DNA of 64,000 bases from an uncultured Nitrospiraceae bacterium. GTDB taxonomy: Bacteria; Nitrospirota; UBA9217. Every line of letters begins with the position of its first letter. Within the stretch, counting starts at the first letter, position 1. Below are positions 1,842 to 31,141 of this stretch, one piece after another. The notes below the pieces were generated by a model, which made no database searches, was not told the DNA's origin, and saw only the letters and a list, made by a program, of their open reading frames with translations. The position numbers and the translations under genes are program-made. The DNA lies in assembly GCA_964447405.1 (NCBI GenBank), contig CAYUSP010000003.1, positions 691,723 through 755,722 on the forward strand, in the 5' to 3' direction.

Positions 1842-3062
1842 TCATCTCAGCCCCGAGCTCATCTCAAGCATAGGCAGCATGATGGCGATGACAATGAAAC
1901 CGATGATCAGGCCCATCACCAGGATGATCACCGGTTCCAGGAGCGCCAGAAACCCGGTGATGCGCGTCTCCACGGTGCGGTCGAACGAATCCGAGATCTT
2001 GAGTAGCATTTTTTCGAGTTCACCGCTCTTCTCGCCCACGGCAACCATCTGCACGACCACGGGCGGGAACAGGCCGCTCCTGCGCAGCGGGTCCGCGATG
2101 GGCTCGCCTTCACGTACGTTGTCGCGGGCCTTCTGGACCGCATTCGCCAGCACGGTATTCCCCACTACATTTCTGACAATATCAAGGGCAGTCAGCGTAG
2201 GAACTCCGCTCTGGAGCAGCGTGCCCAGTGTCCGCGTGAACCGGGATACCGTGATCATGCGGATAAGCCCGCCGAACACGGGAATACGCAGCAGCCAGGC
2301 GTCAACGGCCTCTCTTCCCGCTTGCGTGCCGATATATCTCCGGAAATAGAATATCCCCAGGCCAAGCGCCAGCAGGATCGCCCACCAGTAAGAGGAGAGC
2401 AGCCGCACGATCCCAAGCAGCATGAGCGTCACGAACGGAAGCTGCTGTTTCGTGTTCTCGAACATGCCCACGACGCGCGGCATTACAAAGCTGAACACGA
2501 AGAACAGCATGCCTGCGCCGATGATCGTCATGAACGCGGGATAGGCAAGGGCCGCTGTGATCCTGCCGCGGAACCGCACCTGCTCGTCCAGAAAATCCGC
2601 CAACCGGTCAAGGGTTATCTCAAGAGTCCCGCTCGCTTCACCAGCCGAGACCATGTTGACATAGAGCGGCGAAAAGACCTGCGGATTATCCTTGAGTGCA
2701 TCCGCAAGCGATGCGCCTTCGCGTACCCTGTCGCGCACCGCGGAGAGCGCGGCCTTCAGGGCCTCGGTCTCCTCCTGGTCCACCAGCACGGTCAGAGCAT
2801 CCATCAGGGGGAGCCCCGATGACAACAGTGTCGCAAGCTGCCGCGTGGAGGTGGCCAGGTCGCCGAGACGCACCTTTCGCCTGAACACGGTGGTTGATGC
2901 CCCCCTGCGGGCAGCCTGGGCAGCGTCCCCTTCGCGGATCTCAAGAACGATGATGCCGTCTTTCTTGAGCTTCGTCCGGACGGTCTTGAGGCTTTCCCCG
3001 TCCTGGGCACCGGATATCTTCTTTCCCTGGCTGGTAACGCCTTTGTATTCGTAGACCGGCAT
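1842..3062 (-). CDS. gspF: Type II secretion inner-membrane platform protein GspF
   Basis: 406 aa. The MPVYEYKG... start and duplicated T2SSF-type domains with TM helices are typical GspF/PilC features. Confidence 0.9.
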   Translation of the reverse strand: MPVYEYKGVTSQGKKISGAQDGESLKTVRTKLKKDGIIVLEIREGDAAQAARRGASTTVFRRKVRLGDLATSTRQLATLLSSGLPLMDALTVLVDQEETEALKAALSAVRDRVREGASLADALKDNPQVFSPLYVNMVSAGEASGTLEITLDRLADFLDEQVRFRGRITAALAYPAFMTIIGAGMLFFVFSFVMPRVVGMFENTKQQLPFVTLMLLGIVRLLSSYWWAILLALGLGIFYFRRYIGTQAGREAVDAWLLRIPVFGGLIRMITVSRFTRTLGTLLQSGVPTLTALDIVRNVVGNTVLANAVQKARDNVREGEPIADPLRRSGLFPPVVVQMVAVGEKSGELEKMLLKISDSFDRTVETRITGFLALLEPVIILVMGLIIGFIVIAIMLPMLEMSSGLR

Positions 3063-3086
3063 GGTTTTAATTCAGTTGGGGGTCGC

Positions 3087-3157
3087 GAGTTCGTAGTTCG
3101 GAGATAAAGACCGAAACTGCGATTCTCACTTCCATCTCCGAACTCCAAACTCCGAAC
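3087..3157. repeat. Intercistronic hairpin element: arms GAGTTCGTAGTTCGGAGAT / ATCTCCGAACTCCAAACTCCGAAC, 28-nt loop
   Basis: The inner 11 bp (AGTTCGGAGAT/ATCTCCGAACT) pair perfectly. The arms are tandem repeats of an (A)GTTCGGA-like unit. The element starts 5 nt after the gspE stop. Confidence 0.8.
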
Positions 3158-3162
3158 TTACC

Positions 3163-4848
3163 TCACGTTTCCTTCTGCGTCACCCTCACTACTTCGTCAA
3201 CTGACGTGATGCCGGCGAGGATCTTTTCTGCGCCGTCCTGGCGGAGCGAACGCATGCCTTTTTCCATAGCCAGGGCCTTGATCATGGAAGCATCCGAGTT
3301 CTTCATAATCATCTGGCGCATCTCGTCATCCACCGTCAGGAGCTCATAGATCGCGCTCCTGCCAAAATAGCCGGTGTGGAAGCAGGCTTCGCACCCTTTT
3401 GCCCGATACACGGTGATGCCCGCGGCTCCTGTCCTGATCTCGAGTTCCGCGATCTCGCCGGCGGTCATCTGGTATGGCTCACGGCACTCTTTGCACAGCA
3501 CGCGCACGAGCCTCTGCGCAAGGATCCCCATAACCGACGAGGAAATAAGAAACGGTTCGATCTTCATATCAATCAACCGGGTCACCGCACCGGCGGAATC
3601 ATTCGTATGCAGCGTGGAGAACACCAGGTGTCCGGTGAGCGCGGCCTGGATCGCAATCTCAGCGGTCTCGGAGTCCCGGATCTCGCCCACAAGGATCACG
3701 TCCGGATCCTGACGCAAAACCGAACGGAGCCCCGCGGCAAAGGTGAGATGGATCTTGGCGTTCACCTGGATCTGCCCGATGCCCTTGAGCTGGTACTCGA
3801 CCGGGTCTTCGATGGTGATGATGTTCTTGTCCGGAGAGTTGATCTTCGAGAGCGCCGCGTACAGCGTGGTAGTCTTGCCGCTGCCAGTCGGGCCGGTAAC
3901 GAGAACAATGCCGTGGGGTCGCTCGATCATCGCATTGAACCTGGTAAGGGTATCCCCGGTGAATCCGATCTGATCGAGAGGCAGCAGGGCGCTTTCGCGG
4001 TACAGGAGGCGGAGCACGAGCCGCTCGCCGAACGCGGTGGGAACAATCGAGACACGGATGTCCACATCCTTGCCACCGATCTTGATGCGCATGCCGCCGT
4101 CCTGCGGCAGCCGCCGTTCTGCGATGTTCAGATCGGCCATGATCTTGACGCGCGAAGCGATGCTGGCCTGAAACCGCTTCTGGATCGTGAGAATGTTGTA
4201 CAGGATGCCGTCTATGCGGAACCGCGCGATCATCTCTTTTTCGAAGGGCTCGATGTGAATGTCGCTCGCGCGCTCGCGGATGGCCTGGGACAGGAGCGAA
4301 TTCACCAGCCTGATGATCGGAGCGTCGTCGGTGGCCTCCAGCAGGTCCGCGGGCTCATCGAGCTCCACCGCGAGAAAGGACAGGTCATCCTCCTCCATTT
4401 CCTGGACCGTATCCTCGGCGCGGTTCATGTCCTCGCTGTGAAGGCGGTTGATGGTGTCCAGGATCAGTTCGGACGGGGCAAGCACCAGCGATATATCGGC
4501 GTTGAAAAGGGCCCGGAGATCATCAAGCGTGGCGAGGACAAGCGGTTCGGATGTGGCGGCAACGACCGAGCCGTTCTCCCTGCGGAGCGGGACGGCGATC
4601 GCTTTTTTTGCGTAGGTGATGGGAACCTTGAGGGCCAGCTCGCGGTCGATTTCCCCGAGCTCGCCCTGGAACGGAAGGCGGAGCTGGGCGCCGAGCGCCT
4701 TCAGCACATCGGCCTCCGTCACAAAGTTTAACCGGACCAGCAGCGTACCGATCCGTCCGCCGCGCTTTTTCTGGAGTTCGAGCGCCTTTTTCAGCCGCTC
4801 CGGCGAAAGCCCGGACTCAACAAGTATCTCGCCGAGCAGGCGTCTCAC
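3163..4848 (-). CDS. gspE: Type II secretion ATPase GspE
   Basis: 561 aa. It has an N-terminal T2SE_N-type domain, a Walker A motif (GPTGSGKTTT), and a tetracysteine motif (CKEC...CEAC). Confidence 0.92.
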   Translation of the reverse strand: MRRLLGEILVESGLSPERLKKALELQKKRGGRIGTLLVRLNFVTEADVLKALGAQLRLPFQGELGEIDRELALKVPITYAKKAIAVPLRRENGSVVAATSEPLVLATLDDLRALFNADISLVLAPSELILDTINRLHSEDMNRAEDTVQEMEEDDLSFLAVELDEPADLLEATDDAPIIRLVNSLLSQAIRERASDIHIEPFEKEMIARFRIDGILYNILTIQKRFQASIASRVKIMADLNIAERRLPQDGGMRIKIGGKDVDIRVSIVPTAFGERLVLRLLYRESALLPLDQIGFTGDTLTRFNAMIERPHGIVLVTGPTGSGKTTTLYAALSKINSPDKNIITIEDPVEYQLKGIGQIQVNAKIHLTFAAGLRSVLRQDPDVILVGEIRDSETAEIAIQAALTGHLVFSTLHTNDSAGAVTRLIDMKIEPFLISSSVMGILAQRLVRVLCKECREPYQMTAGEIAELEIRTGAAGITVYRAKGCEACFHTGYFGRSAIYELLTVDDEMRQMIMKNSDASMIKALAMEKGMRSLRQDGAEKILAGITSVDEVVRVTQKET

Positions 4849-6710
4849 CGGGCGCCCTCGGCGGGTCGGCTCGACTCAGGAGTGACCGTCGTCGCGGCGG
4901 GTGCTGACTGCTGTTGGCCAGCAGCCGGCTCCTGCCCAGCCCCTGACTGTTCGCCGGTTGTAGGTTTTTTCTCGTGCGCGCCCGGGAGGCCCCGGTCCTT
5001 TTTGTCAATACGGTATTCCTTGCGGAACTCATCCAGGGATTCGTTCTTGTGCCTCGTAAGTTCGCCGGCCTCGGCGTCTCCCTTGATCACGTAGGGCGTA
5101 ATGAAAATCATGAGGTTCGTCTTCTCGATCTTGGTCGTCTTGTATTTAAAGAACCATCCCAGGATCGGGATATCGCCCAGCAGCGGCACCTTCACGGTTG
5201 ACGCTGTCGCATTGTCCCTGATCAGCCCGCCGATCACCATGGTTTCCTTGTCTTTCACTACGACGGTGGTGCTTGCCGAACGCTTGCTCGTACTCGGGCC
5301 CACCAGGTTCGGATTCAATCCGGCAGTCGCGATCACGTTGGATATCTCAAGGTTCAGCTCGAGCTTGACGTTGTCCTCCGAGGTGATCTGCGGCGTCAGT
5401 TCCATGGTCAGGCCGACGTCCTTTCGATCGATGGCGGTCAGGATGGAGCCGGCCGTTGCCGGAGTCTGGGTTTGACTGCCGATGAACGGCACATTCTCGC
5501 CGACCATGATCTTGGCCTTTTGATTGTCCGTGGTAAGGATGTTCGGCGTGGACAGCACATTCACGTCGCCGTCAGTCTGCACCGCGCGAAGGAGCGCGCC
5601 GATGTTCATGTACTCCACACCTTTAAAAGAGAAGGTACCCTTGACCGCTCCCACGGCCAGGCCATTGAAGCCCGCGAATGCGGCAGGTCCGCTGACCGTC
5701 GCGTTGGCGATGCCGCCGAAGTTCGTCCCGCCCACGGCATTCGTGCTGCTGTCGCTCAGTTGATTGACAGCGCGGAACTCGAATCCGAGTTCCCGCTGCT
5801 TTGCCAGACCCATCTCGATGATCGCTGCTTCGACATAGACCTGGCGGCGGCGAATATCAAGTTTCTGGATCACGTCCTTCATGATCTCGAAATCGCCTGG
5901 CGATGCGACAATAATCAGCGAGTTCGTTGTCTTGTCCGCAGTGATGGTGACCGCGCCTTCGAGGATCGTGGACGGTCCCGCGGGCTGCGCCGCTCCTCCC
6001 GCCGGCGGCACCGGCAGCCTGGAGACAAGCGCCTGCATCAGTTTAGCGATGTCCTCGGCGTTTGCGTTCCTCAAATAGTAGACGTTAATCTTGCCTTTCC
6101 CTTCGGGCGCCGCCACGTCCATGGCATGGATCAGGCTTTCGATCTTCCTGATGTTATGCACGGAGTCGGTAATGATGACGGAGTTCGTGGTGGGATAGGC
6201 GATCAGCGTGCCGTCTTTGGTAACGAGGGGGGAAATCGTTCGCACGATCTCCTGCGGATTGACGAAACTCATGCGGATGAGCTTGGTTACGTACCCCTCC
6301 CCGTTCATGCTGCCATCCTGCATCACCTTGAGCCCGCTCTGCCTGGCCGAGGCCGCGGGAATGATGCGGATCACCGCTCCGTCCTCAATGGCTGTAAACC
6401 CCTTGATTTCGAGCGCCGAAAGGAACACCTGGTATGCCTCGTCGGGTGAGATCTTCGTCGGCGTCATGAGCGTGATCTTGCCCACCACGCGTTCATCCAG
6501 GATGAAGTTCCTGCGCGTAAGCTCGCTCATCACTTTGATGAGGGCGTTGATGTCGATGTTGGTGAAGTTCAGGGTGATGTAATCCTCGCCGGATCTTGCC
6601 TTCTGAAGATCGGCCTGATCGGGCGGGGCAACGGGCTTCTTCTCTTCAGCGTTAGCCGCGGATATGCCCATGAGCCCCATGAGAAGCAGCAGGGCCGCTG
6701 TTCTTTTCAC
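4845..6710 (-). CDS. gspD: Type II secretion secretin GspD
   Basis: 621 aa. Signal peptide MKRTAALLLLMGLMGISAANA, N-domains and a secretin C-domain (VPLLGDIPILGWFF). It has a low-complexity Gln/Ala/Pro-rich tail. There is a 4-nt overlap with gspE. Confidence 0.92.
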   Translation of the reverse strand: MKRTAALLLLMGLMGISAANAEEKKPVAPPDQADLQKARSGEDYITLNFTNIDINALIKVMSELTRRNFILDERVVGKITLMTPTKISPDEAYQVFLSALEIKGFTAIEDGAVIRIIPAASARQSGLKVMQDGSMNGEGYVTKLIRMSFVNPQEIVRTISPLVTKDGTLIAYPTTNSVIITDSVHNIRKIESLIHAMDVAAPEGKGKINVYYLRNANAEDIAKLMQALVSRLPVPPAGGAAQPAGPSTILEGAVTITADKTTNSLIIVASPGDFEIMKDVIQKLDIRRRQVYVEAAIIEMGLAKQRELGFEFRAVNQLSDSSTNAVGGTNFGGIANATVSGPAAFAGFNGLAVGAVKGTFSFKGVEYMNIGALLRAVQTDGDVNVLSTPNILTTDNQKAKIMVGENVPFIGSQTQTPATAGSILTAIDRKDVGLTMELTPQITSEDNVKLELNLEISNVIATAGLNPNLVGPSTSKRSASTTVVVKDKETMVIGGLIRDNATASTVKVPLLGDIPILGWFFKYKTTKIEKTNLMIFITPYVIKGDAEAGELTRHKNESLDEFRKEYRIDKKDRGLPGAHEKKPTTGEQSGAGQEPAAGQQQSAPAATTVTPESSRPAEGAR

Positions 6711-9970: not shown

Positions 9971-10103
9971 ACCGCAGAGGACGCAGAGGGGAAGCATGGC
10001 GAGGAAGGCAACGGCGGGCAAGGCATTAAGCTTTGTTTAAAAACCAGAAATAATTTTGAATTAAGATTTCCTTGGAGTTGATTTCCTCTGCTTCCTCTGC
10101 GGT
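9971..10103. repeat. Cargo-less hairpin element with the same terminal inverted repeats as the GxxExxY cassette
   Basis: The left arm ACCGCAGAGGACGCAGAGG (9971-9989) is identical to 12360-12378. The right arm CCTCTGCTTCCTCTGCGGT (10085-10103) matches the exact complement at 18 of 19 positions. The 95-nt interior is AT-rich and has no ORF. Confidence 0.85.
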
Positions 10104-12359: not shown

Positions 12360-12845
12360 ACCGCAGAGGACGCAGAGGAAGTCAAACCCGCTGGCCTATA
12401 ATCCGTTGGCGACTCTCTTAATGCCATCTTTCAAATGAACAACATTGAAGTTTATTAATAGCCCAAGCTTTTTATTGCTTAATTTCAGGTATGAAAGAAT
12501 TTGTGCTTCATGAATCGGCAATATTTTCTCAACTGCCTTCAATTCAACGATAACACAATTGTCAAGCATAAGGTCTATTCTATATCCGGCATCGATCTTC
12601 AAGCCATCATACAGGATCGGCAAGGCCATTTGAGAAAGCACGGTTAATCCGAGCTTTCGTAGTTCATGCAGCAAACATGCTTCATACGCGCTTTCCAGCA
12701 AACCAGGACCCAAAGCTGAATGAACTTTCATTGCAGCTTCAATAATCTTACCACTAACCCCATTTATATCCATTTATTCCAGACCTCCTGTCTATCCTGC
12801 CAGTTTTTGACCTCCTCGCCTCTCACCCTCTGCGTCCTCTGCGGT
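12360..12845 (-). mobile_element. Hairpin-bounded cassette carrying a GxxExxY gene (perfect 19-bp terminal inverted repeats)
   Basis: ACCGCAGAGGACGCAGAGG at 12360-12378 is the exact reverse complement of 12827-12845. The interior is AT-rich. The element begins 6 nt after the cca stop. Confidence 0.7.
12396..12773 (-). CDS. GxxExxY family protein (PD-(D/E)XK-like small protein)
   Basis: 125 aa. It has the motif G-L-L-E-S-A-Y in ...HSALGPGLLESAYEACLLHEL, a typical ...DLMLDNCVIVELKA... core, and an AGGAGG RBS 8 nt upstream. Confidence 0.85.
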   Translation of the reverse strand: MDINGVSGKIIEAAMKVHSALGPGLLESAYEACLLHELRKLGLTVLSQMALPILYDGLKIDAGYRIDLMLDNCVIVELKAVEKILPIHEAQILSYLKLSNKKLGLLINFNVVHLKDGIKRVANGL

Positions 12846-12851
12846 GAAAGA

Positions 12852-17877: not shown

Positions 17878-18105
17878 AAATTATCCCCCCTCCACAAATG
17901 GAACACTTACAGTTCAGCTTTGTTAAAGAAAAATAGCGAAAAAACCCGTAAAATCGCGCTCATCATAGCAAATTTGCAGTAGAAGTGCAATCAAAAGTAT
18001 GGTACTATTCAGCGTATTTTTTGGGTTTTTGGGGGTTTTTTCGCAATAAATTGACCTTCAAAAAATATATCCCATTACAACCGCACTCACGTTAGGATCA
18101 ATATC

Positions 18106-18549
18106 ATGGACTATAGACAGGGAACGTATGGAAGGGTTTTTATTCTCAAATTTGACGATAAAGACGATCTCCTTAAAGAAATCAAGCAATTAGCTGGTAA
18201 AGAAAAAATCCGGGCTGGTACGATAATGCTTCTGGGCGGCATGCGCTCATGCGGTGTCGTCTCCGGTCCCAGGGAACCGGTGATACCACCAGAACCAGTG
18301 TGGTTCAACTTCAATGATGGCAGAGAAGTTCTTGGCTTCGGCACGCTGTTCTGGCAGGAGAATGAGCCAATTATCCATCTGCACGGTGCAATAGGCCGCG
18401 GAAGCGAGACCGTGACCGGATGTATTCGCAAGGACTCACGCGTGTATCTGGTCGTGGAAGCAGTGATCACCGAGATCCTCGGCATAGAAGCCCGCAAAGC
18501 CACGGATGCAAATTCCGGTCTGGTAATGCTGCAATTGGGAAAATCATGA
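18106..18549 (+). CDS. PPC (DUF296) domain protein
   Basis: 147 aa. ...GRVFILKFDDKDDLLKEI...IMLLGGMRS...IHLHGAIG... is the pattern of the plants-and-prokaryotes-conserved domain. Confidence 0.6.
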   Translation: MDYRQGTYGRVFILKFDDKDDLLKEIKQLAGKEKIRAGTIMLLGGMRSCGVVSGPREPVIPPEPVWFNFNDGREVLGFGTLFWQENEPIIHLHGAIGRGSETVTGCIRKDSRVYLVVEAVITEILGIEARKATDANSGLVMLQLGKS

Positions 18550-20807: not shown

Positions 20808-20810
20808 AAC

Positions 20811-20921
20811 GGACAGAAGTAAGAAGACAGACTGAACCAATATACCGCACGCTTGTATACCTTGTCTATTGTCTGACTTCTCTCTTCTGTCCTCTGTCTT
20901 CTGTCCTCTGTCTTCTGACCC
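20811..20921. repeat. Cargo-less hairpin element related to the four-helix-bundle cassette, plus tandem CTCTGTCTTCTGTC units
   Basis: The left arm GGACAGAAGTAAGAAGACAGAC (20811-20832) pairs with GTCTGACTTCTCTCTTCTGTCC (20871-20892) at 19 of 22 positions. Its first 16 nt are identical to 29288-29303. It starts 3 nt after the lemA stop. Confidence 0.8.
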
Positions 20922-24806: not shown

Positions 24807-25433
24807 ATGTACATCGATCAACCGATACGACAGTTTATGGACAAACTGGCCAGCAAATCTCCCGAACCTGGAGGCGGCAGCGTAGCAGCGCTTACCGGAT
24901 CGCTCGGTGCGGCACTGGTAAGCATGGTCTCGAATCTCACCCTCGGTAAGGAAAAATACAAGGACGTTCAGCCTCAGATCGAACAGTTGCTCAAGGAATC
25001 GGAAAAACTGCGAACAGAAATGCAGGACCTCATCCAGAAGGACACCGAAGTATATGGCGCTCTTTCCGAAGTTTACAAGATGCCAAAGAATACTGATGCG
25101 GAAAAAGCTGCGCGCACTGCAAAGATGCAGGTGGCGTTGAAAAATGCCTGCCAGGTTCCCTTTGACATCGGGATGAAATCACTGGAAGTGGCGAAACTCG
25201 CCCGTCGCGCTGCCGATATCGGGAATGTTGGCGCGGTCAGCGACGCGGGCGTGGCCGTGCTGCTCGCCCAGGCCTGTGCGCAGAGTGCCGCGCTCAATGT
25301 CAAGATCAACGTGAACAGCATCAAGGATGATGCATACAACCAAGACACCTGGACACGCATGCAGGATGTGCTCGGCCAGGTTGCGGCTCTGGAAAAATCA
25401 GTGATGGAAACGACGTATAAGAAAATGGGCTAA
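24807..25433 (+). CDS. Cyclodeaminase/cyclohydrolase family protein (FTCD C-terminal / FchA-like methenyl-THF cyclohydrolase candidate)
   Basis: ORF trimmed to the ATG at 24807. ...FMDKLASKSPEPGGGSVAALTGSLGAALVSMVSNLTLGKEKY... is the family hallmark. Confidence 0.7.
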   Translation: MYIDQPIRQFMDKLASKSPEPGGGSVAALTGSLGAALVSMVSNLTLGKEKYKDVQPQIEQLLKESEKLRTEMQDLIQKDTEVYGALSEVYKMPKNTDAEKAARTAKMQVALKNACQVPFDIGMKSLEVAKLARRAADIGNVGAVSDAGVAVLLAQACAQSAALNVKINVNSIKDDAYNQDTWTRMQDVLGQVAALEKSVMETTYKKMG

Positions 25434-25439
25434 AATATT

Positions 25440-25547
25440 GGGTCATGTAGCATGGGTCAAGCAGCAAGGATCCAAGAGCGGGCGGTAACGATCTTGTTTG
25501 ATGGTTCTCCCCATGCTACTTGCTACAGTGCTTTTGCTACTTGACCC
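25440..25547. repeat. Hairpin element with arms built from GGGTCA(A/T)G(T/C)AGCA units
   Basis: GGGTCATGTAGCATGGGTCAAGCAGCAAGG (25440-25469) faces CCATGCTACTTGCTACAGTGCTTTTGCTACTTGACCC (25511-25547). The outer 14 bp pair at 13 of 14 positions. It starts 6 nt after the upstream stop. Confidence 0.7.
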
Positions 25548-25570
25548 TCTTCGACGAAGGAGAAGAACAC

Positions 25571-28665: not shown

Positions 28666-29313
28666 TTGCCATCACAAATAACTCATGCTATAACGCTCGT
28701 CATGTCAACCTCTCCCTCCTTAGAAGAACAGATAACGATGGCGGGCCTCACATACGGACGCCGCCACGACATCGCATACCGCTCCGGCATGGTGCTCCAG
28801 GTATGCGGTGCTGCCTTGCTCGCTGTGCTGTATCCGCTCGACAGCCCGTTCTATACCATAGGCATCATGCTGTTCGAAGCCGGCGTACTGCTTTCTGCAA
28901 TCTATCTTCTCGTTTGGATGCGCCCGGTCAAGAAGATAATAGTCGGGTCGGTGATCGCAGGGCTCGTTCTTCAAGTAGTCGGTGCCTTCGCGGCCCCGGA
29001 ACAATATGCGGGTCTGGTTCTGCTCTCAGGAATCGGGCTCGTCTGCGCTGGAGCGGCTGGGATGGTCGGCAATGAGGCGTTTTGCTTTGGATACCGTGAA
29101 GGCTGGGTGCTTATGCTGGCTGGATTTCCCGTGATGGTCCTGGCAAATCTGCTGCTCAGAGAGAACCGCATTTTCAATTCGCTGGGTTTCTCCGTTATTT
29201 TTTTACTGCTGCTTTCACTTACAGGCAAGAAGCTAAGGCAGAAATTGCTTTCTTTACCCTCTACAAGCGTTTGCGGGGTGTCGGAGAGGACAGAAGTAAG
29301 AAGTAAGAAGTAA
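28666..29313 (+). CDS. Hypothetical multi-pass membrane protein (possibly DUF2301-like)
   Basis: It has 5-6 predicted TM helices and a ...GNEAFCFGYREGW... motif. The start is uncertain (alternative ATGs at codons 13 and 25). The last ~9 codons and the stop lie inside the repeat arm of the downstream cassette. Confidence 0.5.
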   Translation: MPSQITHAITLVMSTSPSLEEQITMAGLTYGRRHDIAYRSGMVLQVCGAALLAVLYPLDSPFYTIGIMLFEAGVLLSAIYLLVWMRPVKKIIVGSVIAGLVLQVVGAFAAPEQYAGLVLLSGIGLVCAGAAGMVGNEAFCFGYREGWVLMLAGFPVMVLANLLLRENRIFNSLGFSVIFLLLLSLTGKKLRQKLLSLPSTSVCGVSERTEVRSKK

Positions 29314-29736
29314 GAGAACTACCAAATATAATTCGTCCAACATGAAAAAACATAACTTCAGAAATCTAAAAATCTACCAACGAGCCATAGCATTCGCTGT
29401 GGATATTTACCAGATCAGCAGGAGTTTTCCGCAGGATGAAATTTATGGGCTGACAAGTCAGATACGACGGGCCGCAACTTCAATCCCCCTTAATATTGCC
29501 GAAGGCAGTGGCAGCACATCAGGAAAAGAGTTTAGGCGATTTCTTGAAATTGCTTTACGTTCTGATTATGAGGTATTGGCCTGTCTGGAAATATCATTAC
29601 GATTGAATTACTGCAATCATGCGGTTTTTGAAAAACTGACTCAGGAAGCAAACGAAATAGCATCCATGATAGCTGGATTCTCAAAAAGCCTATAATCTTA
29701 CTTCTTACGTCTTATCTCCTTTTTCTTTCTTCTGTC
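29288..29736 (+). mobile_element. Hairpin-bounded cassette carrying a four-helix-bundle (23S rRNA IVS-type) gene
   Basis: The left arm is GGACAGAAGTAAGAAGTAAGAAGTAAGA (29288-29315). The right arm is TCTTACTTCTTAC...CTTCTGTC (29696-29736). The inner 13 bp and outer 8 bp are complementary. The cargo is AT-rich. The stop codons of both flanking convergent genes fall in the arms. Confidence 0.65.
29342..29695 (+). CDS. Four helix bundle protein (23S rRNA-intervening-sequence protein family)
   Basis: 117 aa. ...LKIYQRAIAFAVDIYQISRSFPQDEIYGLTSQIRRAATSIPLNIAEGSGSTSGKEFRRFLEIALRS..E is the canonical pattern of this family. Confidence 0.85.
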   Translation: MKKHNFRNLKIYQRAIAFAVDIYQISRSFPQDEIYGLTSQIRRAATSIPLNIAEGSGSTSGKEFRRFLEIALRSDYEVLACLEISLRLNYCNHAVFEKLTQEANEIASMIAGFSKSL

Positions 29737-31141
29737 ACTTAAAATCTTCCTTTTTCAAACCATACCGCGCCATCTTTTCATGGAAGTTCTTGATATTGAT
29801 CCCCGCATGACCAGCCGCTTTGGTCATGTTTCCGGCATACATTTTGAGAAGCTGGGTAAAATATTCTGTTTCAAACTGCGCAACGACCTCAGTTTTGATC
29901 ATCCGAAAAGGCGGGATATCGCCTCCTCCGGGGAATGACGCGGTGAACTTTCCTGTTCCTCCCGGACGTTTCAAGTCAAGACGGCTGAGGGTGTCGCCCT
30001 TTTCCATGATCACTGCGCGTTCGATAAGATTCTCCAGTTCGCGCACGTTTCCGGGATAGGAATACCGCAGCAACGCAGTGAGCGCATCCGGTGATATAGA
30101 AGTAATCGTTTTCTGGTTTTTTTCGCAATATTTCCTGAGAAAAAATGAGGCTAAAAGCGGGACATCGTCCATCCGGTCCCGCAATGCGGGCAATTTGATC
30201 GGAACAACATTCAGCCGGTAAAAAAGGTCCTCGCGAAACAACCGTTCACCCATAGCGCGATGAAGATCCTTGTGCGTGGCGGCAATGACCCGTACATCGA
30301 CTTTTACGGGATGATTACCTCCCACGCGTTCGAACTCACGCTCCTGCAGTACGCGCAGGAGCTTCATCTGGACCGGCATGGACATTTCCCCGATCTCGTC
30401 GAGGAACAGCGTACCACCATCCGCCATCTCGAATCTACCGATGCGCTGCCGGATCGCACCGGTAAACGATCCCTTCTCGTGTCCAAACAGTTCACTTTCC
30501 AGGAGGGTCTCGGGAAGGGCTGAACAGCTCACAACGACGAATGGGCGGTCCTTTCTTCTGCTGTTATAGTGGATCGACCGGGCTATGAGCTCTTTGCCTG
30601 TGCCGCTCTCTCCGTGGATCAGCACAGTTGCATCGGTCTCGGCCACTGTACGGATGAGCTGAAATATCCCCTGCATGTGCGGATTTCTTCCCAAAAGATT
30701 GCCAAACTGATAACGCTCCTCCACCTCATGCCTGAGATTTTCCACCTCCCGGAAAAGCCTCCTGCGTTCAACAGCATTTTTTACCTGTTGGCTCAGATCC
30801 TCATATTGTATCGGTTTGGTTAAAAAGCTGTAGGCGCCCTCCTTCATTGCCTTGACAGCCATCTCTATCGTCCCGTAAGCGGTCACGACGATCACCGGAA
30901 TGTCAGTCCTGCCCGGCCCCGGGAAGGCTCCCTTGCGAAGCTTCTCGAGCAGGTCCATACCCGTGATCATCGGCATCTGCTGGTCCACGATAATGACATC
31001 GAAATCGCGGCTCTCAAGGCATCTCAATGCCGAAACGCCGTCTTCCGCCGTCTCTACTTCATAGCCTTCCCTTCTGAGGTTGGCAGACATGACCAGAAGG
31101 ATGTCGGGCTCATCGTCGACTATTAAGAGGGAGCCTTTCAT
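29735..31141 (-). CDS. Sigma-54-dependent response regulator (REC, AAA+ and Fis-type HTH domains; NtrC family)
   Basis: 468 aa. The REC domain has LLIVDDEPD...DVIIVDQQMP. It also has Walker A GESGTGKE, the sigma-54 contact ESELFGHEKGSFTGA, and a C-terminal HTH. Confidence 0.9.
   Translation of the reverse strand: MKGSLLIVDDEPDILLVMSANLRREGYEVETAEDGVSALRCLESRDFDVIIVDQQMPMITGMDLLEKLRKGAFPGPGRTDIPVIVVTAYGTIEMAVKAMKEGAYSFLTKPIQYEDLSQQVKNAVERRRLFREVENLRHEVEERYQFGNLLGRNPHMQGIFQLIRTVAETDATVLIHGESGTGKELIARSIHYNSRRKDRPFVVVSCSALPETLLESELFGHEKGSFTGAIRQRIGRFEMADGGTLFLDEIGEMSMPVQMKLLRVLQEREFERVGGNHPVKVDVRVIAATHKDLHRAMGERLFREDLFYRLNVVPIKLPALRDRMDDVPLLASFFLRKYCEKNQKTITSISPDALTALLRYSYPGNVRELENLIERAVIMEKGDTLSRLDLKRPGGTGKFTASFPGGGDIPPFRMIKTEVVAQFETEYFTQLLKMYAGNMTKAAGHAGINIKNFHEKMARYGLKKEDFK

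Follow-up and report, generated by a model that had tools for sequence, protein, structure and literature searches.

A stem-bounded four-helix-bundle gene inserted between two convergent genes of a Nitrospiraceae bacterium: a probable intergenic relative of the ORF-carrying 23S rRNA intervening sequences

The origin and the function of the intervening sequences (IVSs) of 23S rRNA, and of their conserved ORF, have been a standing question since the early 1990s, and rRNA IVSs are hard to study because they are located in essential, multicopy rRNA genes. The Coxiella IVS contains GACAGAT heptamer repeats and is cleaved by RNase III at the first of them (PMC4990558). The four-helix-bundle family to which the ORF belongs is marked by the motif GxxRxxxSxxxNxxE, which its members conserve (Lin 2006; Zhang & Ye 2014, PMC3936711); at 50% identity, this cargo family comprises about 20,000 clusters. 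Heptamers have also been described in intergenic regions, as the STRR repeats of cyanobacteria, GGGAATC of Xanthomonas and TAACTGA of Beggiatoaceae, which are often directly 5' of start codons and sometimes form convergent pairs, 70–75 of them in the case of Xanthomonas GGGAATC (PMC4692102, PMC4679880). In the published Xanthomonas table, a GGGAATC array overlaps the start annotated for the crystallised four-helix-bundle homologue, XCC0516. Our literature search found no paper connecting non-rRNA four-helix-bundle genes with heptamer arms.

The window analysed here is a whole stretch of 64,000 nucleotides from an uncultured Nitrospiraceae bacterium, in which the first-pass annotation had pointed out a 117-aa four-helix-bundle gene (29342..29695, plus strand) inside an AT-rich cassette bounded by complementary arms; gene, coordinates and arms were all confirmed, and the GC content of the cassette is 0.40, against 0.56 in the window. 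The protein, of the 23S rRNA IVS protein/S23p/Avd-like type, matches PF05635 (E 1.2e-37; 128.7 bits, curated cut-off 33.8) and TIGR02436 (E 3.6e-36; 123.7 bits, cut-off 24) over its full length, and shows the family motif as R43xxxS47xxxN51xxE54, the first position being Q40 and not G. Sequence similarity was also found to two five-chain PDB entries, 2GSC (E 1.6e-14) and 2RLD (E 2e-7), and to PHROG 3206, 'Avd of DGR' (E 8e-6). The dN/dS of the gene against orthologues is 0.06–0.09, and the protein is under strong purifying selection. An exact look-up of the 117-aa protein returned zero matches; in L095, the public copy of the locus, the ORF is simply left uncalled. Many database members show N-terminal extensions, which may run into arms. 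No PADLOC model matches the four-helix-bundle protein, and scans of viral contigs with this protein and with the GxxExxY protein of a second cassette, described below, returned no relatives of either. The called neighbours of the cassette encode FolD, a 432-aa protein without Pfam hit, a DUF2301 protein, a sigma-54 regulator and a histidine kinase; no reverse transcriptase, transposase or integrase was called within 2.5 kb of it, and Rfam at gathering thresholds gave no RNA family, hence no rRNA, in the window.

The 5' (left) arm (29285..29315, plus strand) consists of purine-rich tandem heptamers, (A)GAGGACAGA followed by three AGTAAGA units; its part from 29288 to 29315 reads GGACAGA, AGTAAGA, AGTAAGA, AGTAAGA, and pairing with the right arm reaches back to 29285. 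The 3' (right) arm (29696..29736, plus strand) is made of six pyrimidine-rich heptamers (TCTTACT, TCTTACG, TCTTATC, TCCTTTT, TCTTTCT and the shortened TCTGTC), and is the complement of the left arm with a 14-nt bulge, which corresponds to two heptamers extra on the right. Tandem Repeats Finder (TRF) reported period 7 in both arms, with 3.4 copies on the left and 5.4 on the right, and the inverted repeat proper, 29297-29315 versus 29696-29714, spans 19 nt at 95% complementarity. The annotation had given an inner 13 and an outer 8 bp; as RNA, the arms form an inner stem of 13+5 bp and an outer stem of 8+3 bp on the two sides of the bulge. The energy of this duplex, −34.3 kcal/mol, was reached by 0 of 500 shuffles (−19.9 ± 3.6 kcal/mol), and in the minimum-free-energy fold of 29270-29760 the arms are paired (z = −2.75). 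Heptamer arrays are thus a better description of the arms than a simple hairpin, and, since the repeats are tandem, an RNA stem would tolerate register shifts. Between the left arm and the start codon lies an AT-rich leader of 26 nt (29316..29341, plus strand) without a clear Shine-Dalgarno sequence or sigma-70-like promoter. The purine-rich-5'/pyrimidine-rich-3' polarity of the arms was considered as evidence of orientation and dropped, because an inverted repeat of the form R...rc(R) reads identically from either strand and non-purine units are common in other cassettes. In the window, same-sense heptamer arrays are found also beside ordinary genes, at a pseudopilin operon, so that an array of heptamers is in itself no mark of a cassette.

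The module, of about 450 bp, occupies the entire gap between two convergent stop codons, both located as first annotated. Upstream is the gene of a DUF2301-type integral membrane protein (28702..29313, plus strand; 203 aa in the public call, P0121, 100% identical), whose TAA stop at 29311-29313 falls in the third AGTAAGA unit of the left arm. In fact, the arm supplies the last 8 codons (RTEVRSKK) and the stop of this ORF, which has lost its native C-terminus (...CGVS-E/D-K and stop) and reads into the arm instead. Downstream is a sigma-54-dependent response regulator gene (29735..31141, minus strand), which keeps its native stop (TGA, minus strand, 29735-29737); the arm begins directly after it, its outer 2 nt overlapping the stop. 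The annotation had spoken of a stem-bounded insert within a protein-coding region: the stem stands, while the location does not, the insert being intergenic, between the two stops of the DUF2301 and sigma-54 regulator genes, and not inside 23S rRNA at helix 9, 25 or 45.

Comparison of this junction among relatives, which had been suggested as a check, returned several states. In L123 and L128 the junction is empty, the stops being 25–45 nt apart without any heptamers; in L101 a pyrimidine array stands alone; L016, L015 and L127 carry a cassette in the same orientation and L108, L117 and L122 in the opposite one, and the copy of L105 has an internal deletion. The larger inserts at this junction in L102, L104, L106, L115 and L120 were rejected as cassettes, being ordinary genes (porin-like proteins, an MNT/HEPN pair). 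The relatives that show the junction empty and armless demonstrate that the whole unit, arms included, is an insertion filling the gap between the convergent stops. The closest orthologous loci point to Nitrospirota, and in this Nitrospirota-like lineage the insertion is old, although relatives show gains, losses, internal deletion and replacement by a cassette of the other orientation. An origin of the opposite-orientation copies by simple inversion through the arms was rejected, because L105 and L108 have flanks of 87–93% nucleotide identity while their cassettes, inverted, are only 72% identical. No target-site duplication is visible, as the sequences that border the two arms on the outside are unlike each other (left ...GTCGGA, right ACTTAA...); since no mobile-element enzyme was called within 2.5 kb either, mobility is deduced from the distribution alone.

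These junction states bear on two other explanations. It could be that a host hairpin, a bidirectional terminator between convergent genes, was there before, that the gene was inserted into its loop and that the arms are its two halves: such terminators typically sit between convergent stop codons, and the empty junctions do carry small hairpins. These are, however, short, GC-rich and unrelated to the heptamer arms; moreover, at our locus there is no T-run and no terminator match, a 16-mer of the arm is present at a second locus, and the same arm type surrounds homologues in co-directional operons and in rRNA, all of which makes this origin extremely improbable. The gene could also be an ordinary accessory gene, inherited vertically, the arrays being regulatory or post-transcriptional repeats of the host, like STRR, TAACTGA and GGGAATC, with no discrete insert at all. 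In agreement with this, at least 8 related lineages keep the cassette at this very junction, the gene is under purifying selection, the window has arrays between pseudopilin genes and ORF-less hairpins in several further intergenic regions, and heptamer repeats are reported to abound between the genes of other bacteria (PMC4679880, PMC4692102). By contrast, at empty junctions gene and arms are both missing, the GC content of the cassette departs from that of the window (0.40 against 0.56), proteins 68–82% identical to the cargo occur in unrelated contexts in several phyla, Nitrospirota, Planctomycetota and Actinomycetota among them, the arm sequence tracks the cargo family rather than the host, and complementary flanks are in 35-fold excess over control genes of the same loci; we regard it as improbable.

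The arm search in the window, also suggested by the annotation, was productive. The 16-mer GGACAGAAGTAAGAAG of the left arm, which the orthologous arms in L016 and L127 share, has one other occurrence in the window, at 20811 (0 expected by chance). It belongs to an ORF-less twin of the four-helix-bundle cassette (20810..20917, plus strand), located between a LemA gene and the next gene and composed of CGGACAGAAGTAAGAAGACAGA, a loop of about 40 nt and (TCTGTCY)n (−33.4 kcal/mol); it has the arm and the start of the leader in common with the cassette, the leader 29316..29341 being partly homologous to the start of the loop, from 20835 on. A second cassette (12361..12846, minus strand) carries a GxxExxY/PDDEXK_3 gene (12396-12773, minus) between ACCGCAGAGGACGCAGAGG and its perfect complement. 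Its arms, ACCGCAGAGGACGCAGAG, are conserved across distant genomes and flank also 74%-identical homologues in other phyla; in PADLOC, the GxxExxY protein gave marginal Cas4-like hits only. This cassette, too, has an ORF-less twin (9971..10103, plus strand), with the same arms and 5' leader and a 95-nt loop (−56.8 kcal/mol), and further ORF-less short intergenic hairpins lie at 25430-25548 and 3087-3152. The ORF-less heptamer hairpins are decayed copies of cassettes that persist, and the arms, which differ in sequence between cassettes, remain self-complementary and travel with their cargo family across phyla.

To compare the flanks of homologues with those of other genes, 120–130 nt on each side were scored for complementarity (Smith-Waterman score of at least 30) in 86 homologues from many phyla and in 300 control genes of the same loci. 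Complementary flanks were found in 46.5% of the former and in 1.3% of the latter, a 35-fold enrichment; about half of the bacterial homologues were negative with flanks of this length. Both arms showed period 7 or 14 in 29 of the 45 positive bacterial cases. At similar divergence, arms were detected in 30 of 53 bacterial homologues and in 0 of 13 archaeal ones (Fisher p = 1e-4). RNase III is not known from most archaea, and the armless archaeal homologues fit with a dependence on this enzyme. Homologues occur as single-gene inserts in a cas1/cas2 and in a DUF2130/cas10 interval, and L001 is distinguished from L008 by a breakpoint within the heptamer array. In L072 and L088 the homologues are inside the LSU (23S) rRNA, in sense orientation and with complementary tandem-heptamer arms, the copy of L072 in a complete rrn operon. 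Thus, of the general IVS-like cassette mechanism put forward by the annotation, the architecture is supported, by the flank test and by the rRNA copies with heptamer arms, while excision by RNase III and the mode of insertion are putative steps. The annotation would have been contradicted if neither other copies nor empty sites existed and relatives kept the gene here without flanking complementarity; instead there are empty sites, varied copies, an ORF-less twin and homologues with complementary flanks. As the architecture recurs across bacteria, 23S rRNA included, the inserts appear to form a single class of element, common and for the most part undescribed.

On this basis we consider it probable that the cassette is a stem-bounded single-gene unit of the same kind as the ORF-carrying 23S rRNA IVSs, lodged intergenically. 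In the unit of about 450 bp, tandem 7-nt repeats form the 5' arm and their reverse complements the 3' arm, and between the two lie a short leader and the conserved Avd-like four-helix-bundle gene. The cassette would be promoterless and transcribed by read-through from the upstream gene. Scans for sigma-70 promoters and intrinsic terminators, in and beside the cassette, gave no matches, and among homologues the upstream neighbour is co-oriented with the cassette gene in 55 cases versus 8. Read-through is no option for the six cassettes that run against both of their neighbours, nor for three in L075 that oppose a tRNA array. In the RNA the arms would zip into a stem of about 25–30 bp, which may be cut by RNase III, by analogy with rRNA IVSs, the inserts to which the experimental proof belongs; the cut would free the insert from the host transcript, and for this reason rRNA, tRNA clusters and operons would be able to bear such inserts. 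The AGTAAGA units of this copy, which have TAA in all three frames of the left arm, would also end inbound translation from both incoming strands; as a general design rule, three-frame stops were discarded, since they hold for AGTAAGA arms and fail for the CAGA-type units of close homologues. The simplest way for the cassette to reach new sites that agrees with the data would be recombinational exchange, through either its repeat arrays or the host sequences beside them.

Arms of this kind could also act at the DNA level, as inverted repeat arrays that are substrates for homologous or slipped-strand recombination (exchange, inversion, deletion), their complementarity upheld by gene conversion between arms and not by selection on RNA pairing, and the RNA stem being incidental. 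The occurrence of both orientations at one junction, with replacement between close relatives, the internal deletion of L105, the array-internal breakpoint between L001 and L008 and the arms common to the ORF-less twins all speak for such a role, and the duplex energy is alike on both strands, being −32.7 kcal/mol for the arms of the antisense transcript; with antisense pairing just as good, roles in RNA and in DNA are inseparable by this measure. On the other hand, the copies in 23S rRNA need removal at the RNA level for working ribosomes, and the Coxiella heptamers are cleaved by RNase III (PMC4990558); a purely DNA role does not predict the strong upstream co-orientation (55 versus 8), and the archaeal homologues are armless. 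Mismatches in the arms, read on the sense strand, are more often of the G.U type than of the A.C type (60 vs 39, p = 0.04), a weak hint of RNA pairing that a transcription-coupled C>T bias could also produce. We judge the DNA-level explanation to be possible, not likely; it is compatible with a stem-bounded unit of the IVS kind and does not exclude it.

If the intergenic cassettes and the rRNA IVSs are the same entity, tests of IVS biology can move to single-copy loci that the cell can do without; a genomic logic emerges for a huge family of 'hypothetical' proteins and for a second family, GxxExxY, the CRISPR-associated reports of such genes are to be re-read as insertions, and the abundant intergenic heptamer repeats of several phyla gain a candidate explanation. 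Moreover, gene callers miss or mis-start such ORFs, as in the public copy L095, where none was called, and recognition of the module would help annotation. A wider reading, which taken as a whole we find doubtful, would take ORF-bearing rRNA IVSs for no more than the conspicuous members of a vast class of bacterial elements, 'stem cassettes', whose own propagation cycle makes and homogenises the self-complementary heptamer arrays. The RNA released by RNase III might possibly be copied back to DNA, with the Avd-like protein as a cofactor of a reverse transcriptase in trans; the heptamer repeats between the genes of cyanobacteria, Xanthomonas and Beggiatoaceae, for which an explanation has long been missing, would be footprints of the element, as would those of this genome, and the reported 'association' of 23S_rRNA_IVP with cas operons mere cassette insertion.

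Compared with known systems, the ORF-less derivatives resemble MITEs, REP/BIME and Correia-type elements in being short intergenic hairpins, and share their ends with an ORF-bearing 'parent', as MITEs do. In contrast to these elements, the cassette ends are tandem arrays of variable unit and copy number instead of terminal inverted repeats of fixed sequence, a target-site duplication is missing, and the 'parent' has no transposase gene. Integron gene cassettes are single-ORF units with imperfect inverted repeats like ours, and are promoter-less with read-through expression, as is proposed here; they differ in that our unit is solitary and not arrayed, has tandem-repeat arms on both sides of the ORF, and shows no attC/attI or integrase among its neighbours. 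The Avd of diversity-generating retroelements is a homologous four-helix-bundle protein (PHROG 3206, E 8e-6), whereas the cassette gene is a solitary cargo between repeat arms with no adjacent reverse transcriptase or template/variable repeat called, as assessed on its called neighbours. The intergenic heptamers of cyanobacteria (STRR), Xanthomonas (GGGAATC) and Beggiatoaceae (TAACTGA) have the 7-nt period and intergenic position of the cassette arms; they are mostly unpaired, and the studies describing them (PMC4692102, PMC4679880) made no link to four-helix-bundle genes, GxxExxY genes or IVSs.

The closest likeness is to the ORF-bearing 23S rRNA IVSs of Coxiella burnetii and Leptospira. The location is different, between two protein-coding genes instead of in rRNA helix 45, and so is the state of the ORF, which in the cassette is under strong purifying selection, whereas that of Coxiella is reported as decaying and probably untranslated. 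Instead, the cargo family of the S23p ORF, PF05635, is common to both, and the sizes are similar (428 nt in Coxiella, PMC4990558; about 450 nt here). The Coxiella-type IVS and the cassette have complementary terminal sequences, with a stem of about 28 bp, and tandem heptamers directly upstream of the ORF, GACAGAT three times in Coxiella (PMC4990558) and GGACAGA plus three AGTAAGA in the cassette; in rRNA IVSs as in the cassette, the ORF is in sense orientation relative to the host transcript.

The ORF at 29342–29695, between the DUF2301 membrane-protein gene and the convergent sigma-54 response regulator gene, encodes a 117-aa protein which, in profile searches, matched PF05635 (23S_rRNA_IVP) over its full length (E = 1.2e-37) and TIGR02436 'four helix bundle protein' (E = 3.6e-36), and also hit a PHROG family labelled Avd of diversity-generating retroelements; the closest solved structures are XCC0516 (2GSC, E = 1.6e-14) and 2RLD, with five chains deposited in each. 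The wide distribution of PF05635 was already known, and the family comprises 19,639 clusters at 50% identity (E ≤ 1e-3); proteins 68–82% identical to the window product bear names from Nitrospirota, Brocadiales, Actinomycetota and Dissulfurispiraceae. For many members a representative search matched from their residue 30–48, so these proteins have extra N-terminal sequence that may be read from the arms. In L095 (3113–3533), the public copy of the locus, the ORF was left uncalled by the assembly's gene caller.

The sequence at 29288–29736 is as the first-pass annotation described it. The flanks, there taken as a hairpin, do hold a complementary stem, but they are more than this, both being period-7 tandem arrays: GGACAGA and three AGTAAGA units on the left (29288–29315); TCTTACT, TCTTACG, TCTTATC, TCCTTTT, TCTTTCT and TCTGTC on the right (29696–29736). 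The arms pair over 13 + 5 bp and, beyond a 14-nt bulge made by the right arm's two extra units, over 8 + 3 bp, with a duplex energy of −34.3 kcal/mol against −19.9 ± 3.6 in shuffles (0/500 as low), and the same stem closes the minimum-free-energy fold of the full 491 nt. The AT-richness noticed for the cargo was borne out (cassette 40% GC, window 56%), as were both stops: that of the DUF2301 gene is the TAA within the third AGTAAGA unit, and the regulator ends at 29735–29737, so that the module fills the entire intergenic space. The AGTAAGA units of the window copy present TAA in all three frames to both incoming strands. Scanning of the cassette for promoter-like and terminator-like sites found none, and no Rfam family matched.

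With the DUF2301 neighbour as query against public metagenomes, 30 related loci were retrieved, and the junction was read where this gene and the sigma-54 regulator remain convergent neighbours. The comparison, suggested at first pass, returned empty junctions (L123, L128; stops 25–45 nt apart, heptamers absent), a lone pyrimidine heptamer array (L101), cassettes oriented as in the window (L016, L015, L127) or oppositely (L108, L117, L122), an internally deleted cassette with codon ~47 fused to a C-terminal stub (L105), and unrelated ordinary genes (L102, L104, L106, L115, L120). Cassette-free relatives show the native DUF2301 C-terminus, ...CG-x-S/P-D/K-K followed by the stop; the window ORF extends into the arm (...SERTEVRSKK, then stop), and the regulator's native stop is kept. 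The unit is an insert, and the arms are part of it. The flanks of L105 and L108 are 87% and 93% nucleotide-identical, whereas their cassettes, mutually inverted, are only 72% identical, which rejects a simple flip and argues for replacement. Since the window, L016 and L015 can be aligned over the whole unit and the cargo has a dN/dS of 0.06–0.09, the insertion is old, vertically carried and functional, yet turning over.

In L115 (790–1750), an MNT-HEPN-type nucleotidyltransferase/HEPN gene pair replaces the cassette at the junction, with arm-like remnants adjoining the regulator's stop. In the cassette-free L097, the convergent neighbour is another gene, for a GAF- and HD-domain response regulator, whose final codons (3125–3160) are encoded by GGACAGAAGACGGAAAGCAGGAAG, resembling the purine heptamers of the arm; this may be a fossil arm.

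Close homologues are single-gene wedges inside operons, between cas1 and cas2 (L011–L014) or between DUF2130 and cas10 (L001 and related loci); each is preceded by an extended array of purine-rich heptamers (GGACAGA, GGGCAGA, AGACAGA) and followed by the complement of that array. The flank design is shared by 80 genome loci spanning many phyla, in which the units differ (AAGAGCA, AGTCAGT, GCTAAGT, TAGGGG, GGAAATA and others). Flank complementarity, at a Smith-Waterman score of at least 30, was found for 46.5% of 86 distinct genes versus 1.3% of 300 control genes taken from these loci, and two of the four control hits turned out to be further four-helix-bundle copies. Both arms had period 7 or 14 in 29 of 45 positive bacterial cases; armed homologues numbered 0/13 in archaea versus 30/53 in bacteria at similar divergence (p = 1e-4). 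The general stem-bounded cassette anticipated earlier is thus supported by flank complementarity, together with the empty junctions and the copies in rRNA.

The cassettes sampled on many contigs (L001–L014, L131–L138) lie within loci for defence, namely type III CRISPR-Cas, cas1-cas2, restriction-modification and DUF1156/DUF499, which could be a true defence-island enrichment or a sampling effect. L008 and L001 have an identical cassette and downstream cas10 and differ in the gene upstream, with a breakpoint (about 2860–2960) that falls within the heptamer array, reflecting either recombination via the array or chimeric metagenome assembly at the repeat. In Rhodopirellula maiorica (L075, 1–6000), 23 tRNA genes on one strand are interspersed with three opposite-strand four-helix-bundle cassettes, each with its own heptamer unit.

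The second stem-bounded unit of the window carries a GxxExxY / PDDEXK_3 gene (12396–12773, minus strand) flanked by ACCGCAGAGGACGCAGAGG and its perfect complement. Its 74% identical homologues in other genomes (one named Candidatus Binatia) are wedged between methyltransferase and helicase genes or between DUF1156 and DUF499, and carry the same arms, which indicates that arms travel with the cargo family. In L136/L137 (1879–2020), the simple right arm after the GxxExxY gene is replaced by an ORF-less hairpin, nested or in tandem, which consists of another complete left arm, a loop of 60 nt and a right arm. Further copies of the arms, sought as the first reading advised, occur in the window as ORF-less twins: that of the four-helix-bundle cassette (20810–20917) has in common with it the 16-mer GGACAGAAGTAAGAAG (two occurrences in the window, chance expectation 0) and the leader start, and that of the GxxExxY cassette (9971–10103) both arms and the 5' leader. 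As the twins share these ends and L105 is an internal deletion caught under way, the simplest reading of the ORF-less hairpins is that they are decayed cassettes, whose relation to the ORF-bearing copies is MITE-like. Other ORF-less intergenic heptamer hairpins lie at 3087–3152 (units GAGTTCG/CTCCGAA) and 25430–25548 (GGGTCAAGCAGCA against TGCTACTTGACCC, 7-nt units), and are present in other loci too.

Three pseudopilin-like genes with G|FTL(I/V)E leaders each have same-sense heptamer arrays upstream (CAGGGGT/CATGGGG, minus strand; 301–332, 728–768, 1271–1302, 1790–1820); being direct and unpaired, these arrays form no stem, and mechanical ORF calls take them in as N-terminal extensions. At 17933–18047, AT-rich intergenic DNA upstream of a gene that begins at 18106 contains a 21-nt inverted repeat, ATAGCGAAAAAACCCGTAAAA / TTTTGGGGGTTTTTTCGCAAT.

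For RNA processing and mobility we infer the following steps. Upstream neighbours within 400 nt are co-oriented in 55 cases against 8 (most frequent context, co-directional on both sides, 39; convergent, as in the window, 9) and, with no promoter match, cassette RNA would likely come from read-through transcription of the upstream gene. In this RNA the arms would pair into an extended double-stranded stem, whose tandem repeats would make pairing tolerant of slippage and unequal copy number, and RNase III, by analogy with rRNA intervening sequences (IVSs), may cut the stem and free the insert. Such release would explain why operons, rRNA and clusters of tRNA genes tolerate the element, and why the archaeal homologues are armless. 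Sense-strand arm mismatches were 60 G·U-type versus 39 A·C-type (p = 0.04), a weak and confounded excess, faintly suggestive of RNA-level processing. No transposase, integrase or reverse transcriptase was found among the called neighbours, nor any target-site duplication at the cassette; spread may proceed by exchange via arrays or host flanks, compatible with the L105/L108 replacement.

It was already known that rRNA IVSs carry an S23p ORF, have inverted termini and are excised by RNase III, with heptamers in Coxiella (PMC4990558), that 18 PF05635-type genes lie inside cas loci, then taken as a possible cas-associated function (PMC3936711), and that intergenic heptamer repeats abound in Xanthomonas, Nostoc and Beggiatoaceae, including 70–75 convergent pairs in Xanthomonas (PMC4692102, PMC4679880). 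XCC0516, the member of the family that has been crystallised, has its annotated start overlapped by a GGGAATC array in the published Xanthomonas repeat table. In the literature consulted, which covers few subscription journals so that a prior description is possible, no paper was found that links these facts, and none equates non-rRNA copies with a stem-bounded heptamer-arm module, describes a second cargo family of the same design or derives ORF-less heptamer hairpins from cassettes.

Two loci carry copies within 23S rRNA, sense-oriented and with heptamer arms: L072, a complete Bacillota rrn operon (gene 3919–4272 within LSU 2664–5949), and L088, an LSU fragment. In the 16S-23S spacer of L072 (2286–2441), a tRNA gene (2329–2401) lies between complementary heptamer arrays (TACTATA.../GTAAATA...), which look like a heptamer-built processing stem. 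With the same arm type inside 23S rRNA, the reading of the window feature as an IVS-type element outside rRNA, put forward at first pass, is supported for architecture and evolutionary behaviour. The Coxiella IVS has 428 nt, a 28-bp terminal stem and, directly upstream of its S23p ORF, three tandem GACAGAT plus GACAGAA, the first heptamer repeat being the RNase III cut site (PMC4990558). The two elements share the terminal stem and the heptamers 5' of a PF05635-type ORF, but the Coxiella IVS lies in 23S rRNA and the window cassette is intergenic; to judge from this anatomy and from the heptamer-armed rRNA copies, the latter is the intergenic counterpart of the former.
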